The position numbers and the translations under genes were made by a program. Under the pieces are notes generated by a model that was given only the letters and a program-made list of their open reading frames with translations, was not told the origin of the DNA and searched no databases. From assembly GCF_003334405.1 (NCBI RefSeq), contig NZ_QOWM01000003.1: a stretch of 64,000 bases of DNA. One strand, given 5' to 3'. Origin of the DNA: Escherichia coli (GTDB taxonomy: Bacteria; Pseudomonadota; Gammaproteobacteria; Enterobacterales; Enterobacteriaceae). Below are positions 288 to 55,098 of this stretch, in pieces; position 1 is the stretch's first letter; each line of letters begins with the position of its first letter.

Positions 288-1337
288 ATGGCACAAGTCA
301 TTAATACCAACAGCCTCTCGCTGATCACTCAGAACAACATCAACAAAAACCAGTCTGCGCTGTCGACTTCTATCGAGCGCCTCTCTTCTGGTCTGCGTAT
401 TAACAGCGCTAAAGATGACGCCGCGGGCCAGGCGATTGCTAACCGCTTTACTTCTAACATCAAAGGTCTGACTCAGGCCGCACGTAACGCCAACGACGGT
501 ATTTCTCTGGCGCAGACGGCTGAAGGCGCGCTGTCAGAGATTAACAACAACTTGCAGCGTATTCGTGAACTGACCGTTCAGGCCTCTACCGGCACGAACT
601 CTGATTCCGACCTGTCTTCTATTCAGGACGAAATCAAATCCCGTCTTGATGAAATTGACCGTGTATCTGGTCAGACCCAGTTCAACGGTGTGAACGTGCT
701 GTCGAAAAACGATTCGATGAAGATTCAGATTGGTGCCAATGATAACCAGACGATCAGCATTGGCTTGCAACAAATCGACAGTACCACTTTGAATCTGAAA
801 GGATTTACCGTGTCCGGCATGGCGGATTTCAGCGCGGCGAAACTGACGGCTGCTGATGGTACAGCAATTGCTGCTGCGGATGTCAAGGATGCTGGGGGTA
901 AACAAGTCAATTTACTGTCTTACACTGACACCGCGTCTAACAGTACTAAATATGCGGTCGTTGATTCTGCAACCGGTAAATACATGGAAGCCACTGTAGT
1001 CATTACCGGTACGGCGGCGGCGGTAACTGTTGGTGCAGCGGAAGTGGCGGGAGCCGCTACAGCCGATCCGTTAAAAGCACTGGATGCCGCAATCGCTAAA
1101 GTCGACAAATTCCGCTCCTCCCTCGGTGCCGTTCAAAACCGTCTGGATTCTGCGGTCACCAACCTGAACAACACCACCACCAACCTGTCTGAAGCGCAGT
1201 CCCGTATTCAGGACGCCGACTATGCGACCGAAGTGTCCAACATGTCGAAAGCGCAGATTATCCAGCAGGCGGGCAACTCCGTGCTGTCTAAAGCCAACCA
1301 GGTACCGCAGCAAGTTCTGTCTCTGTTACAAGGCTAA
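288..1337 (+). CDS. fliC: flagellin FliC, short-variable-domain allele (349 aa)
   Basis: Conserved flagellin N-terminus MAQVINTNSLSL and C-terminus VLSLLQG; RBS AGGAAA upstream; K-12 FliC is 498 aa, so this is a different H-antigen allele. Confidence 0.95.
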   Translation: MAQVINTNSLSLITQNNINKNQSALSTSIERLSSGLRINSAKDDAAGQAIANRFTSNIKGLTQAARNANDGISLAQTAEGALSEINNNLQRIRELTVQASTGTNSDSDLSSIQDEIKSRLDEIDRVSGQTQFNGVNVLSKNDSMKIQIGANDNQTISIGLQQIDSTTLNLKGFTVSGMADFSAAKLTAADGTAIAAADVKDAGGKQVNLLSYTDTASNSTKYAVVDSATGKYMEATVVITGTAAAVTVGAAEVAGAATADPLKALDAAIAKVDKFRSSLGAVQNRLDSAVTNLNNTTTNLSEAQSRIQDADYATEVSNMSKAQIIQQAGNSVLSKANQVPQQVLSLLQG

Positions 1338-1379
1338 TGGCCTTAACCTGCCTGACCCCGCTACCGGCGGGGTTTTTTC
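1170..1379 (+). ncRNA. fliX: possible FliX sRNA derived from fliC 3' end (boundaries approximate)
   Basis: Established knowledge that a sigma28-dependent sRNA is processed from the fliC 3' region ending at its terminator; only the terminator is directly visible in the sequence. Confidence 0.25.
1356..1379 (+). terminator. rho-independent terminator of fliC
   Basis: CCCCG...CGGGG stem followed by TTTTTT, about 20 nt after the fliC stop. Confidence 0.7.
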
Positions 1380-1467
1380 TGCCCGCAATTTACCGGTAAC
1401 CCCCAAATAACCCCTCATTTCACCCACTAATCGTCCGATTAAAAACCCTGCAGAAACGGATAATCAT

Positions 1468-1475
1468 GCCGATAA
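1468..1475 (+). promoter_or_regulatory. sigma28-type -10 element upstream of fliA
   Basis: Exact GCCGATAA 26 nt upstream of the fliA GTG start; no clear TAAA at the expected -35 spacing, so the promoter call is partial. Confidence 0.3.
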
Positions 1476-1500
1476 CTCATATAACGCAGGGCTGTTTATC

Positions 1501-2220
1501 GTGAATTCACTCTATACCGCTGAAGGTGTAATGGATAAACACTCGCTGTGGCAGCGTTATGTCCCGCTGGTGCGTCACGAAGCATTGCGCCTGCAGGTTC
1601 GACTGCCCGCGAGCGTGGAACTTGACGATCTGCTACAGGCGGGCGGCATTGGGTTACTTAATGCCGTCGAACGCTATGACGCCCTACAAGGAACGGCATT
1701 TACAACTTACGCAGTGCAGCGTATCCGTGGCGCTATGCTGGATGAACTTCGCAGCCGTGACTGGGTGCCGCGCAGCGTGCGACGCAACGCGCGTGAAGTG
1801 GCACAGGCAATAGGGCAACTGGAGCAGGAACTTGGCCGCAACGCCACGGAAACTGAGGTAGCGGAACGTTTAGGGATCGATATTGCCGATTATCGCCAAA
1901 TGTTGCTCGACACCAATAACAGCCAGCTCTTCTCCTACGATGAGTGGCGCGAAGAGCACGGCGATAGCATCGAACTGGTTACTGATGATCATCAGCGAGA
2001 AAACCCGCTACAACAACTGCTGGACAGTAATCTGCGTCAGCGGGTGATGGAAGCCATCGAAACGTTGCCGGAGCGCGAAAAACTGGTATTAACCCTCTAT
2101 TACCAGGAAGAGCTGAATCTCAAAGAGATTGGCGCGGTGCTGGAGGTCGGGGAATCGCGGGTCAGTCAGTTACACAGCCAGGCTATTAAACGGTTACGCA
2201 CTAAACTGGGTAAGTTATAA
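1501..2220 (+). CDS. fliA: flagellar sigma factor sigma28 FliA (239 aa, GTG start)
   Basis: Translation MNSLYTAEGVMDKHSLWQRYVPLV... matches FliA over full length. Confidence 0.95.
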   Translation: MNSLYTAEGVMDKHSLWQRYVPLVRHEALRLQVRLPASVELDDLLQAGGIGLLNAVERYDALQGTAFTTYAVQRIRGAMLDELRSRDWVPRSVRRNAREVAQAIGQLEQELGRNATETEVAERLGIDIADYRQMLLDTNNSQLFSYDEWREEHGDSIELVTDDHQRENPLQQLLDSNLRQRVMEAIETLPEREKLVLTLYYQEELNLKEIGAVLEVGESRVSQLHSQAIKRLRTKLGKL

Positions 2221-2265
2221 CGTCAGTAAATGCCGCACTTTAACTTTGACTACCAGGAGTTCTTA

Positions 2266-2817
2266 ATGATGGTGCAGCACCTGAAAAGACGGCCATTAAG
2301 CCGCTATCTTAAAGACTTTAAACACAGCCAGACTCATTGCGCGCATTGCCGTAAATTACTCGATCGCATTACCCTCGTTCGCGACGGCAAAATAGTGAAT
2401 AAAATCGAGATTTCCCGCCTGGACGCGCTGCTTGATGAAAATGGCTGGCAAACGGAACAAAAATCATGGGCGGCATTGTGCCGATTTTGCGGTGATTTAC
2501 ATTGCAAAACGCAGAGTGATTTTTTCGATATTATCGGCTTTAAGCAATTTCTTTTTGAGCAAACTGAAATGAGCCCAGGTACGGTGCGTGAATATGTCGT
2601 TCGTTTGCGCCGTTTGGGGAATCATCTACACGAGCAAAATATTTCCCTCGATCCGCTGCAGGACGGTTTCCTTGATGAAATCCTCGCCCCGTGGCTGCCC
2701 ACCACCAGCACCAACAATTACCGCATCGCATTACGGAAGTATCAACACTATCAGCGTCAAACGTGTACCGGACTTGTGCAGAAATCCTCCAGCCTGCCTG
2801 CTTCTGATATATATTAA
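2266..2817 (+). CDS. fliZ: flagellar regulator FliZ (183 aa)
   Basis: Track ORF 2230-2817 is N-extended by 12 codons; recognised FliZ N-terminus MMVQHLKRR begins at 2266. Confidence 0.88.
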   Translation: MMVQHLKRRPLSRYLKDFKHSQTHCAHCRKLLDRITLVRDGKIVNKIEISRLDALLDENGWQTEQKSWAALCRFCGDLHCKTQSDFFDIIGFKQFLFEQTEMSPGTVREYVVRLRRLGNHLHEQNISLDPLQDGFLDEILAPWLPTTSTNNYRIALRKYQHYQRQTCTGLVQKSSSLPASDIY

Positions 2818-2904
2818 ATAAGAATAAGATGTAGCGGAGTTGTTTTTGTGTTTACAAACAATGGCTCTACACTGCAAACAGACATAACAACATTCGGGGT
2901 AAAT

Positions 2905-4796
<1,892 letters not shown>

Positions 4797-26260: not shown

Positions 26261-29152
<2,892 letters not shown>

Positions 29153-31524: not shown

Positions 31525-33126
31525 ATGTTTAATCGTATTCGAATTTCGACCACGCTGTTTTTAATTTTGATTCTCTGCGGGATCTTGCAGATTGGCAGTA
31601 ACGGCATGTCTTTTTGGGCATTTCGCGACGATTTGCAACGACTGAATCAGGTCGAGCAGAGCAATCAGCAACGTGCGGCATTAGCGCAAACTCGGGCGGT
31701 AATGTTACAGGCCAGTACCGCGCTGAACAAAGCGGGCACTCTGACGGCACTTAGCTATCCGGCGGATGACATTAAAACGTTGATGACGACGGCGCGCGCC
31801 AGTCTGACGCAATCCACCACGCTGTTTAAAAGTTTTATGGCGATGACTGCGGGCAACGAGCACGTCAGGGGATTGCAAAAAGAGACGGAGAAAAGTTTTG
31901 CCCGCTGGCACAACGATCTCGAACATCAGGCGACCTGGCTTGAAAGTAATCAACTTTCGGATTTCCTCACTGCGCCGGTGCAGGGATCACAGAATGCGTT
32001 TGACGTTAACTTTGAGGCCTGGCAGCTGGAGATCAACCATGTGCTGGAAGCCGCCAGTGCGCAAAGCCAGCGTAACTATCAGATTTCGGCACTGGTGTTT
32101 ATCAGCATGATTATTGTTGCGGCGATCTACATCAGCAGTGCGCTGTGGTGGACGCGCAAGATGATTGTTCAACCACTGGCCATTATCGGTAGCCATTTTG
32201 ACAGCATTGCTGCGGGTAATCTGGCGCGTCCGATTGCGGTATATGGTCGTAATGAGATCACCGCCATTTTTGCCAGTCTGAAGACCATGCAGCAGGCTTT
32301 GCGTGGGACGGTAAGTGATGTGCGTAAGGGAAGCCAGGAGATGCACATTGGTATCGCGGAGATTGTCGCAGGCAATAACGATCTCTCAAGTCGTACCGAA
32401 CAGCAGGCGGCATCGCTGGCACAAACGGCCGCCAGTATGGAGCAATTAACCGCCACGGTAGGGCAAAACGCCGATAACGCACGACAGGCGTCGGAACTGG
32501 CAAAAAATGCCGCGACAACGGCGCAGGCGGGCGGTGTTCAGGTCAGTACCATGACTCACACCATGCAGGAGATCGCCACCAGCTCGCAAAAAATTGGCGA
32601 CATTATCAGCGTTATCGACGGAATTGCTTTCCAGACCAATATTCTGGCCCTGAATGCGGCAGTGGAAGCGGCTCGCGCCGGAGAGCAGGGGCGTGGTTTT
32701 GCGGTAGTGGCAGGTGAAGTGCGCAATCTTGCCAGCCGTAGCGCGCAGGCAGCAAAAGAGATCAAAGGGCTGATCGAAGAGTCAGTCAATCGTGTCCAGC
32801 AGGGTTCGAAACTGGTGAATAACGCCGCCGCGACCATGATCGATATTGTCAGTTCGGTGACCCGCGTGAACGACATTATGGGAGAAATTGCCTCTGCGTC
32901 GGAAGAACAACAGCGGGGGATTGAGCAGGTTGCACAGGCTGTCAGCCAGATGGATCAGGTGACTCAGCAGAACGCCTCGCTGGTAGAAGAAGCGGCGGTG
33001 GCAACGGAACAACTGGCGAATCAGGCCGACCATCTTTCGTCGCGTGTGGCGGTATTTACCCTTGAAGAACATGAAGTAGCACGACATGAGTCGGTGCAGT
33101 TACAAATTGCGCCAGTGGTATCCTGA
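31525..33126 (+). CDS. tap: methyl-accepting chemotaxis protein IV Tap (533 aa)
   Basis: Recognised N-terminus MFNRIRISTTLFLIL; track ORF begins one codon upstream at a TTG. Confidence 0.95.
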   Translation: MFNRIRISTTLFLILILCGILQIGSNGMSFWAFRDDLQRLNQVEQSNQQRAALAQTRAVMLQASTALNKAGTLTALSYPADDIKTLMTTARASLTQSTTLFKSFMAMTAGNEHVRGLQKETEKSFARWHNDLEHQATWLESNQLSDFLTAPVQGSQNAFDVNFEAWQLEINHVLEAASAQSQRNYQISALVFISMIIVAAIYISSALWWTRKMIVQPLAIIGSHFDSIAAGNLARPIAVYGRNEITAIFASLKTMQQALRGTVSDVRKGSQEMHIGIAEIVAGNNDLSSRTEQQAASLAQTAASMEQLTATVGQNADNARQASELAKNAATTAQAGGVQVSTMTHTMQEIATSSQKIGDIISVIDGIAFQTNILALNAAVEAARAGEQGRGFAVVAGEVRNLASRSAQAAKEIKGLIEESVNRVQQGSKLVNNAAATMIDIVSSVTRVNDIMGEIASASEEQQRGIEQVAQAVSQMDQVTQQNASLVEEAAVATEQLANQADHLSSRVAVFTLEEHEVARHESVQLQIAPVVS

Positions 33127-33144
33127 AGTGATTGAGAAGGCGCT

Positions 33145-43233: not shown

Positions 43234-44069
<836 letters not shown>

Positions 44070-44376: not shown

Positions 44377-45477
44377 ATGCGAGGGAAAAAACGCATTGGG
44401 TTATTGTTTTTGCTGATAGCGGTTGTGGTTGGTGGCGGCGGGTTATTGCTGGCGCAAAAAGCCTTACATAAAACGTCGGATACAGCATTTTGCCTTTCCT
44501 GCCACTCGATGAGTAAACCTTTTGAGGAATATCAGGGAACTGTCCACTTTTCGAACCAGAAAGGGATACGTGCGGAATGTGCCGATTGCCATATTCCAAA
44601 GTCAGGGATGGATTATTTATTTGCTAAATTAAAGGCATCTAAAGATATTTATCATGAATTTGTTAGCGGCAAAATAGACAGTGACGATAAGTTCGAAGCT
44701 CATCGCCAGGAAATGGCCGAAACAGTATGGAAAGAATTAAAAGCCACTGACTCTGCAACGTGCCGTAGTTGCCATTCTTTTGATGCCATGGATATTGCCT
44801 CGCAAAGTGAATCTGCGCAGAAAATGCATAACAAAGCACAAAAGGACAGCGAAACCTGTATCGATTGTCATAAAGGCATTGCCCATTTTCCGCCAGAAAT
44901 AAAAATGGATGACAACGCGGCGCATGAGCTGGAAAGTCAGGCCGCTACTTCAGTTACTAATGGCGCACATATTTATCCTTTCAAAACTTCTCACATAGGC
45001 GAGCTGGCTACCGTGAATCCTGGAACCGATCTCACCGTCGTTGATGCCAGTGGCAAACAGCCGATCGTTCTGTTGCAGGGTTATCAAATGCAGGGCAGTG
45101 AAAACACGCTCTACCTGGCGGCAGGTCAACGGCTGGCGCTAGCCACATTAAGTGAAGAAGGTATCAAGGCGCTCACTGTAAACGGGGAATGGCAGGCTGA
45201 CGAATACGGCAATCAATGGCGTCAGGCGTCTTTACAGGGTGCGCTTACCGATCCCGCATTAGCGGACCGTAAACCGCTATGGCAATACGCTGAAAAACTT
45301 GACGATACCTATTGCGCTGGTTGTCATGCCCCTATTGCCGCCGACCATTACACCGTCAATGCGTGGCCGTCCATTGCCAAAGGAATGGGGGCACGAACCA
45401 GCATGAGCGAAAACGAACTGGACATTTTAACGCGGTATTTCCAGTACAACGCCAAAGATATTACCGAGAAACAGTGA
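44377..45477 (+). CDS. torY: NapC/NirT-family pentahaem c-type cytochrome TorY (366 aa)
   Basis: Multiple CxxCH haem-binding motifs (CLSCH, CADCH, CRSCH, CIDCH, CAGCH); RBS AGAGG; AT-rich upstream region. Confidence 0.92.
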
Positions 45478-45501
45478 TCCTCGTTGATCAGGGAGGAAGT
45501 T

Positions 45502-47931
45502 ATGACATTAACAAGACGTGAATTTATTAAACACAGCGGTATTGCCGCTGGAGCGCTGGTGGTGACATCGGCAGCACCGCTCCCCGCATGGGCAGAAGAG
45601 AAGGGCGGTAAAATCCTCACCGCGGGACGTTGGGGAGCGATGAACGTAGAAGTGAAGGACGGCAAGATTGTTTCTTCAACAGGCGCGCTGGCGAAAACCA
45701 TACCGAATTCCTTACAGTCTACGGCGGCGGATCAGGTACACACCACGGCGCGTATTCAGCATCCGATGGTGAGAAAAAGCTATCTCGATAATCCACTGCA
45801 ACCGGCGAAAGGTCGTGGCGAAGATACCTATGTACAGGTGAGCTGGGAACAGGCATTAAAACTGATTCATGAGCAACATGATCGTATTCGTAAAGCTAAC
45901 GGACCATCGGCCATTTTTGCCGGATCTTACGGCTGGCGCTCTTCTGGCGTGTTGCATAAAGCGCAAACCTTACTGCAACGTTATATGAACCTGGCGGGCG
46001 GTTATTCCGGGCATAGCGGCGATTATTCAACCGGGGCAGCACAGGTGATCATGCCGCATGTGGTCGGTTCTGTAGAGGTGTATGAACAGCAGACCTCCTG
46101 GCCGCTGATTCTGGAAAACAGCCAGGTTGTGGTGCTGTGGGGAATGAACCCGCTGAATACCTTAAAAATTGCCTGGAGCAGTACCGATGAGCAAGGGCTG
46201 GAATACTTCCATCAGCTGAAAAAATCTGGCAAACCAGTGATTGCCATTGATCCTATCCGCTCCGAAACCATCGAATTCTTTGACGATAATGCCACCTAGA
46301 TCGCGCCGAATATGGGCACCGACGTGGCACTGATGTTAGGGATTGCGCATACCCTGATGACACAAGGCAAACACGATAAAGTGTTCCTTGAAAAATACAC
46401 TACCGGGTATCCGCAGTTTGAAGAGTATCTGATAGGTAAGAGCGATAATACGCCGAAGAGCGCGGTCTGGGCGGCGGAAATTACTGGCGTACCGGAAGCG
46501 CAGATAGTCAAACTCGCTGAACTGATGGCGGCGAATCGCACAATGCTGATGGCAGGCTGGGGAATTCAGCGCCAGCAATATGGTGAACAGAAACACTGGA
46601 TGCTGGTGACGCTGGCGGCGATGTTAGGGCAGATTGGTACACCGGGCGGCGGTTTTGGTTTCTCTTATCATTACTCCAACGGTGGCAACCCGACGCGTGT
46701 TGGCGGCGTGCTGCCGGAAATGTCTGCGGCGATTGCCGGACATGCCAGCGAGGCCGCTGATGATGGCGGAATGACGGCGATTCCTGTTGCCCGTATCGTC
46801 GATGCGCTGGAAAATCCTGGCGGCAAATATCAGCATAACGGTAAAGAACAAACGTATCCGAATATCAAAATGATCTGGTGGGCGGGTGGCGGTAACTTTA
46901 CCCATCACCAGGATACTAATCGTCTGATTAAAGCATGGCAGAAACCGGAGATGATCGTCGTTTCTGAATGCTACTGGACCGCAGCAGCCAAACACGCAGA
47001 TATCGTATTACCGATCACCACATCGTTTGAGCGCAATGACTTGACGATGACCGGTGATTACAGCAACCAGCATATTGTGCCGATGAAGCAGGCTGTTGCT
47101 CCGCAATTTGAAGCGCGTAACGATTTTGACGTGTTTGCCGATCTTGCGGAATTACTCAAACCTGGCGGAAAAGAGATCTATACCGAAGGTAAAGATGAAA
47201 TGGCGTGGCTGAAATTTTTCTATGATGCCGCTCAGAAAGGTGCCCGTGCGCAACGCGTCACTATGCCAATGTTTAATGCCTTCTGGCAGCAAAATAAACT
47301 GATCGAAATGCGCCGCAGCGAGAAGAACGAACAGTACGTTCGTTATGGTGATTTCCGCGCCGATCCGGTGAAAAATGCGCTGGGTACGCCAAGCGGCAAA
47401 ATTGAAATCTATTCAAAAACGTTGGAAAAATTTGGCTATAAGGATTGCCCGGCACACCCAACCTGACTGGCTCCTGATGAATGGAAAGGTACCGCCGACG
47501 AGAAGCAGTTACAGCTTCTGACCGCACATCCGGCACACCGTTTACACAGTCAGCTTAACTATGCGGAACTGCGTAAAAAATATGCGATCGCCGATCGTGA
47601 ACCAATCACTATTCACACCGAAGATGCTGCACGCTTTGGTATTGCGAATGGCGATCTGGTGCGTGTCTGGAACAAACGTGGTCAGATTTTGACAGGCGCG
47701 GTGGTGACTGACGGGATCAAAAAAGGCGTGGTATGCGTGCATGAAGGTGCATGGCCAGATCTGGAAAATGGCTTGTGTAAAAACGGCAGTGCGAACGTGT
47801 TAACGGCGGATATCCCCAGCTCGCAGCTGGCAAATGCCTGTGCCGGTAACTCAGCGTTGGTGTATATCGAAAAATATACGGGCAATGCACCGAAGTTAAC
47901 GGCGTTTGATCAGCCAGCTGTTCAGGCGTAA
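45502..47931 (+). pseudogene. torZ: TMAO/N-oxide reductase TorZ (BisZ) interrupted by two in-frame stop codons
   Basis: Tat signal [17 protein letters not shown] at the start; three same-frame track ORFs (45484-46299, 46312-47466, 47659-47931) are collinear and total 809 codons; internal TAG at 46297-46299 and TGA at 47464-47466. Confidence 0.8.
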
Positions 47932-54357: not shown

Positions 54358-55098
54358 ATGGCAGGTCATAGTAAATGGGCCAACACCAGACATCGTAAAG
54401 CTGCGCAGGATGCTAAGCGCGGTAAAATCTTCACTAAAATCATTCGTGAGCTGGTAACCGCGGCTAAGCTGGGCGGTGGCGATCCGGACGCTAACCCGCG
54501 TCTGCGTGCGGCGGTGGATAAAGCACTGTCTAACAATATGACCCGTGACACACTGAACCGCGCAATTGCACGTGGTGTGGGCGGTGATGATGATGCAAAC
54601 ATGGAAACCATCATCTACGAAGGTTACGGTCCTGGCGGCACGGCAATCATGATTGAATGTCTGTCTGACAACCGCAACCGTACCGTTGCTGAAGTGCGTC
54701 ATGCATTTAGCAAATGTGGCGGTAACCTCGGTACTGATGGTTCCGTTGCCTATCTGTTCAGCAAAAAAGGCGTGATCTCCTTCGAGAAAGGCGATGAAGA
54801 CACCATCATGGAAGCAGCACTGGAAGCAGGTGCTGAAGACGTTGTGACCTATGATGACGGCGCGATTGATGTCTACACTGCATGGGAAGAAATGGGTAAA
54901 GTGCGCGACGCTCTGGAAGCGGCAGGTCTGAAAGCAGACAGCGCGGAAGTTTCCATGATCCCGTCTACCAAAGCTGATATGGATGCAGAAACCGCACCGA
55001 AACTGATGCGTCTGATCGATATGCTGGAAGATTGCGACGACGTGCAGGAAGTTTACCATAACGGTGAAATCTCTGATGAGGTCGCAGCGACTCTCTGA
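54358..55098 (+). CDS. yebC: YebC/PmpR-family transcriptional regulator (246 aa)
   Basis: Translation [31 protein letters not shown]... typical of the YebC family. Confidence 0.93.

Follow-up and report, generated by a model that had tools for sequence, protein, structure and literature searches.

The torZ gene of Escherichia coli K-12 (bisZ, b1872) encodes a periplasmic Mo-bisMGD S-/N-oxide reductase belonging to the BisC/MtsZ group and lies in the torYZ operon. E. coli possesses seven Mo-containing S-/N-oxide reductases with apparent redundancy, and the transcription of torZ in a UPEC strain responds to HOCl, copper and paraquat, which indicates that intact torZ is not entirely silent (PMC12096835). 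As far as the account of this system in PMC5122715 goes (citing Gon et al., 2000), TorYZ alone supports TMAO respiration only when it is overexpressed, and its physiological role is described there as unknown. The closest structurally characterised homologue is Haemophilus influenzae MtsZ (HiMtsZ; PDB 7L5I; full-length alignment, E = 1e-301), an intact and virulence-supporting methionine sulfoxide reductase, whereas the torZ gene described below is dead. A literature search on torZ as a pseudogene found nothing specific to E. coli. With regard to the origin of nonsense codons, the amber hotspots of lacI lie at the second C of CCAGG and are ascribed to deamination of 5-methylcytosine (Coulondre et al., 1978; reviewed in PMC12606429).

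The whole stretch of DNA analysed here, 64,000 nt and hereafter the window, is a piece of E. coli chromosome carrying fliC, uvrC, araFGH, otsBA, flhDC, the mot/che genes, flhBAE, argS, cutC-torYZ-cmoBA, aspS, ruv, znu, pyk and zwf. The locus at 45502–47931 (plus strand) can be assigned to torZ by its sequence, its signal peptide and its synteny. Like K-12 torZ, it stands in the order cutC-torY-torZ-cmoB-cmoA and keeps the 809-codon frame. Its DNA is 99.9% identical to annotated torZ genes, and its conceptual translation, in which both stops are turned back into Trp, scores 1266 bits against the cutoff of 1017.55 for the NCBIfam model TIGR00509 (bisC_fam). The Tat signal claimed in the initial annotation is borne out by a TIGR01409 match at residues 3–31 of TorZ (27.1 bits; cutoff, 16.7). 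The upstream gene torY (44377–45477, plus strand) codes for the partner of TorZ, a pentahaem cytochrome c of the NapC/NirT/TorC type, and is intact as had been stated; it is a single 366-aa ORF without any difference from that of NZ_AP022105.1, the nearest complete genome, where it is annotated, also as intact, under WP_001214290.1. TorY matches the TorC and NapC/NirT NCBIfam models under their equivalog cutoffs, as expected for a paralogue. A gap of 24 nt separates the end of torY from torZ, and the same synteny is found in annotated relatives.

Translation of 45502–47931 in a single frame gives 810 codons, namely the 809-codon full-length frame and its terminal stop, with stops at codons 266, 655 and 810 alone. 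This confirms the two nonsense codons reported initially, TAG at 46297–46299 (W266*, below TAG266) and TGA at 47464–47466 (W655*, below TGA655), each in the protein context quoted at the time. They break the gene into three ORF pieces on the plus strand: an N-terminal piece of 271 aa (45484–46299) ending at TAG266; a middle remnant of 384 aa (46312–47466), which holds the Molybdopterin domain and is diagnostic of the double-stop haplotype; and a C-terminal remnant of 90 aa (47659–47931), which holds the Molydop_binding domain according to the ORF list and Pfam. The pieces had been said to add up to exactly 809 codons; their coordinates and collinear frame do span 809, but the pieces themselves total 745 aa (271+384+90). 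Compared with NZ_AP022105.1, torZ has an equal length of 2,430 nt with no indel, in agreement with the earlier claim that no frameshift is present, and differs at two bases, 46433 (C>T) and 47466 (G>A), TAG266 being common to both genomes. The former base changes codon 311 (46432–46434, plus strand) from ACA to ATA and gives T311I, a missense change specific to a sub-lineage and downstream of the first stop; hence the gene is not otherwise pristine, contrary to its initial description.

Both nonsense codons are TGG in intact E. coli torZ genes, so that each is indeed one G-to-A change away from Trp. The expectation of Trp at these sites holds for both positions within E. coli TorZ but not for position 266 in the family at large: HiMtsZ has Trp at both, Rhodobacter DMSO reductases keep Trp655, and position 266 is Val or His in the DMSO reductases. 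A functional member of the BisC family has an open frame, whereas the Molybdopterin and Molydop_binding domains are here split over three ORFs. Most conspecific genomes, in turn, have an intact orthologue at this locus, and a point change accounts for the stop, as is the case for a unitary pseudogene. Unlike K-12 torZ, the gene in the window carries W266*, W655* and T311I and would thus be unable to encode the enzyme. We consider torZ of this genome to be, very probably, a unitary pseudogene that has decayed stepwise.

A quite different reading is that the stops are decoded, by selenocysteine insertion at the UGA, by programmed read-through or by a suppressor tRNA, to give a functional full-length TorZ. 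UGA-encoded selenocysteine is used by some members of the DMSO reductase family, the formate dehydrogenases. A UGA followed by C is also a leaky termination context, at which near-cognate tRNA-Trp would restore the wild-type residue. However, no stable hairpin lies 3′ of either stop (z = −0.52 and +1.12), an Rfam scan gave no match inside torZ, and the three tRNAs of the window are ordinary ones (Gly-GCC, Cys-GCA and Leu-TAA), none of them a suppressor. The DNA around the stops is identical to that of intact alleles except for the point changes and thus shows no co-evolved recoding signal, homologues have Trp at residue 655, which is not the Mo-ligand position, and two serial stops would multiply two background read-through rates that are already low. 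The earlier suggestion of programmed read-through, itself ranked last, finds nothing in its favour in downstream structure, Rfam elements or the tRNAs of the window, and decoding of both stops is highly improbable. A selenocysteine enzyme in particular was considered and rejected; no stable structure follows the UGA (z = −0.52), residue 655 aligns to a conserved Trp rather than to the Ser Mo ligand, and a private point change of a TGG codon accounts for the UGA.

The distribution of the first stop was surveyed by searching allele-specific 31-mers against 5,426 complete RefSeq E. coli genomes, using megablast with a 28-nt word, so that the central base has to match. The 31-mer with TAG266 was found in 45 of these genomes and its TGG version in 3,900. 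In all TAG266 carriers examined, torZ is annotated in RefSeq as a pseudogene with the note "internal stop". Because gene callers cut a pseudogene at its stops, the resulting protein fragments were also looked up by exact sequence in NCBI, JGI, ENA and Logan; two of them, one N-terminal and of 265 aa, the other downstream, of 539 aa and from alleles with TAG only, each occur in at least 1,000 contigs. Six further carriers originate in Korea, Japan, Viet Nam and China, their sources being chicken, a frog farm, swine and a hospital, and they share one torZ haplotype with no more than five differences in 6 kb. With NZ_AP022105.1 counted in, the seven other carriers examined all show C at 46433, and all show G at 47466. 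No papers on the carrier isolates turned up under their accession numbers. The same holds when the window is set beside the "internal stop" torZ genes of isolates such as WP5-S17-ESBL-10, LAU-OXA, NCTC9041 and Z1323CEC0003: the TAG266 allele is identical and the haplotype is the same, whereas such isolates keep TGG at codon 655 together with Thr at 311, which places the sub-lineage of the window one decay step further.

The flanks of TAG266 carriers consist of a common haplotype plus the TAG change and are too uniform to tell a single origin from multiple ones. A single origin and recurrent mutation at the hotspot would both fit the local haplotype, and on the fliC side the flank of the window departs from that of other carriers. 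Within the carriers, 45855 (third position of torZ codon 118) is polymorphic, being A in the window and NZ_AP022105.1 and G in five other carriers, and this site might help in ordering the events within the clade. Four of the six extra carriers have a cutC gene frameshifted by a 1-bp insertion relative to the window (locus positions 1–707; about 43855 of the window), which is annotated in those four as a pseudogene, while the cutC of the window is intact. The frameshifted cutC marks a TAG266 sub-clade with decay of a neighbouring gene.

TGA655 shows a much narrower distribution. Its 31-mer was found in none of the 5,426 complete genomes, 997 of which have the TGG version with the same flanks, and T311I likewise was found in none of the 5,426. 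The 384-aa middle fragment with I311 and ending at TGA655 is, however, encoded in three draft or read-set assemblies, GCA_024592625.1 from NCBI and the Logan assemblies of SRR3989531 and ERR1948962, so that the survey of related genomes proposed initially recovers both alleles. The three loci are identical to the window over about 21.2, 11.8 and 6.6 kb, respectively, except for one 1-bp indel in the NCBI contig at position 44037, outside torZ. The NCBI contig, the sole one of the three reaching that far, also has the T allele at 54537. In the exact-sequence look-up, neither I311 with Trp655 nor T311 with TGA is on record as a fragment. TAG266, T311I and TGA655 thus make up a real, inherited haplotype of a small sub-lineage, itself nested among the carriers of TAG266.

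These data bear directly on the possibility, raised in the initial annotation, that sequencing or assembly error accounts for one or both stops and that the gene is really intact. The absence of TGA655 from all 5,426 complete genomes would fit an error, as would the location of both stops in Dcm motifs, which are error-prone in some long-read base-callers. TAG266, on the other hand, is present in the 45 complete genomes and in the many contigs of four archives mentioned above, and the combination of TAG266, T311I and TGA655 recurs in GCA_024592625.1, SRR3989531 and ERR1948962 with a torZ identical to that of the window. These are an NCBI draft and two unrelated read sets assembled with another pipeline, and recurrence of the haplotype in three independent datasets indicates an inherited allele rather than a sequencing error. 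Base-calling error of long reads at a methylation motif was considered for TGA655 and is ruled out by the same recurrence; on the whole, an error at either stop is very unlikely. The initial view of two independent and very recent hits stands as far as the inactivation of torZ is concerned, but TAG266 is inherited and widespread, and TGA655 is later and nested within it.

The two stops also differ in their mutational context. At site 1, the ancestral Dcm motif CCTGG (46295–46299) is now CCTAG, and the changed G stands opposite the inner C, the methylated one, of CCAGG on the bottom strand; read on that strand, CCAGG became CTAGG by C>T at the inner C, exactly at the position of a Dcm hotspot. 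Deamination of the inner C in torZ predicts W266*. This is like the amber mutations of lacI at Dcm sites, in which a G:C>A:T change at the second C of CCAGG, here on the bottom strand, yields TAG; unlike them, TAG266 is a natural chromosomal polymorphism and not part of a laboratory mutant collection. At site 2, the ancestral CCTGG (47462–47466) is now CCTGA, the change being opposite the outer, unmethylated C and thus off the canonical hotspot position, in contrast to the lacI ambers. The sequence context of site 2 occurs at 4 of the 21 Trp codons of torZ, and the CCTGG motif there is probably coincidental. The genes dcm and vsr are annotated as intact in NZ_AP022105.1, a close TAG266 carrier; dcm lies outside the window. 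From the motif and the base changed, we infer a hotspot mechanism for TAG266, while TGA655 and T311I are treated as presumably ordinary G:C>A:T transitions in an already dead gene.

From 25.4 kb on, four SNPs and one 3-bp deletion set the window apart from NZ_AP022105.1, the comparison covering 38.6 kb. The 2.43 kb of torZ make up 6.3% of this span and hold two of the SNPs (binomial P about 0.02), and this excess is a weak signal of relaxed constraint. All four SNPs are G:C>A:T, as is the clade-wide TAG266 change, and G:C>A:T is the commonest spontaneous substitution class in E. coli. The uniform spectrum, together with the fact that TGG>TAG and TGG>TGA are the changes that a cytosine base-editor makes at Trp codons, might be taken to mean that the stops were made deliberately or by mutagenesis with EMS or NTG. 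However, TAG266 is a natural allele, widespread among field isolates, and the double-stop haplotype occurs in several unrelated datasets. The first 25 kb of the window, moreover, shows a mixed spectrum at low density, with five differences from its nearest relative, FDAARGOS_1058, and carries no signature of mutagenesis. Engineering, which the initial annotation had also allowed for, is accordingly extremely improbable, and the surroundings of the stops, being those of intact alleles, point the same way. A hypermutator or mutagenesis signature was considered separately and is ruled out by the mixed spectrum of those five differences.

Taken as stepwise decay, the course of events would run as follows. 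In an ancestor on a common phylogroup-A-like torYZ haplotype, the Dcm 5-methylcytosine at the inner C of the bottom-strand CCAGG would have been deaminated to T, and the deaminated base would have escaped Vsr repair, turning codon 266 from TGG to TAG; in this first step the distribution of the allele is a direct observation, and the chemistry is what we infer. TorZ would then end after 265 of its 809 residues, with the loss of most of the molybdopterin domain and of the entire MGD-binding C-terminal domain, and such a truncation should leave no active reductase possible. TAG266 would subsequently have spread to many isolates, of human, poultry, pig and wildlife origin and from several countries. 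In a second step, apparent as a nested distribution, the dead gene would have gained T311I and W655* in its untranslated remainder within a small sub-lineage that includes the genome of the window. Since torY is still intact and torZ has no indels, the loss seems young on an evolutionary scale. Because torZ is the last gene of the operon, a polar effect on other genes would not be expected. Poor expression of TorYZ, and its place among seven partly redundant S-/N-oxide reductases, may explain why the loss is tolerated.

torZ has also been lost in other E. coli lineages. Q197* (CAG>TAG; locus 871–3300 of the carrier) lies on a torZ background divergent by 54 nt and is found in at least 77 contigs, and frameshifts occur near codons 241, 265 (127 contigs) and 294. 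Q197* and the frameshifts are independent lesions. A 207-aa TorZ fragment present in 102 contigs was considered as a second stop at a Dcm hotspot, at Q208, but proved to be a C-terminal fragment starting at M603.

Several independent knockouts in circulation further support the view that E. coli can dispense with TorYZ. The same knockouts in other lineages, and the many hosts and countries reached by TAG266, could also be read as a sign that loss of TorZ is adaptive and positively selected, the hotspot having merely supplied the mutation. Against this, carriers account for less than 1% of complete genomes, hitch-hiking within a successful clone can explain the spread, and recurrent loss is equally expected for a dispensable and redundant gene. 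Positive selection is thus unlikely; it concerns the cause of the spread, is compatible with the pseudogene mechanism and is not needed for the data. Slightly less likely still is that the Dcm site at codon 266 acts as a recurrent natural knockout switch, with several independent origins of TAG266 and with TorZ loss favoured in certain host-associated phylogroup-A lineages. If this were true, natural methylation hotspots would shape which accessory respiratory genes E. coli loses.

Returning to unitary decay, the TAG266 pseudogene is already annotated in RefSeq, the double-stop allele is already in public assemblies, and the process is routine stepwise decay. The result carries little weight beyond annotation, in which the locus should be labelled a torZ pseudogene and not three small molybdopterin-oxidoreductase genes. 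TorYZ activity is best presumed absent from strains of this lineage. The locus nevertheless offers two clean natural examples, first, of a Dcm 5-methylcytosine hotspot giving rise to an amber codon in the wild, and second, of further hits piling up in a dead gene, seen as a nested distribution of alleles.

No genome identical to the window was found among the 5,426 complete RefSeq E. coli genomes, and the window itself is mosaic. Its first 25 kb is closest to FDAARGOS_1058, which has an intact torZ, and the fliC-side flank is unlike that of the other TAG266 carriers. Over 25–27 kb on the fliC side the window is nearly identical to FDAARGOS_1058 and it diverges from this genome from 27.6 kb on (compared over 1–27600), while 25405–64000 matches the common haplotype of TAG266 carriers, whose identity to the window in the first 25 kb is only 99.6%. 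This pattern suggests recombination around the flagellin region.

The chemotaxis genes hold two of the few private changes of the window, both relative to NZ_AP022105.1 and FDAARGOS_1058. In tar, at about 30415, one Val is lost through an in-frame deletion of 3 bp within a GTG repeat (CTGGTGGTGGTA to CTGGTGGTA), and in cheA a G>A change at 28067 gives CheA E294K. In FDAARGOS_1058, the tap gene for methyl-accepting chemotaxis protein IV (31529–33130 of that locus) bears the annotation of a pseudogene with an "internal stop".

Two small RNA matches flank the torYZ region. Just past the end of cutC, 44000–44068 (plus strand) corresponds to the 3′ portion of MicL, an sRNA (Rfam RF02654; 67 bits, above gathering); the match is truncated by the 5′ limit of the range scanned and probably extends upstream into cutC. 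The 1-bp deletion at 44037 in GCA_024592625.1 (CCAGG to CCAG) falls within this MicL element and is absent from the window and from both Logan contigs. In the torZ-cmoB intergenic region, 48004–48123 matches the ES036/CssrF sRNA on the minus strand (45.5 bits, above gathering), and the same segment also matches the REP-derived naRNA4/CssrE below gathering.
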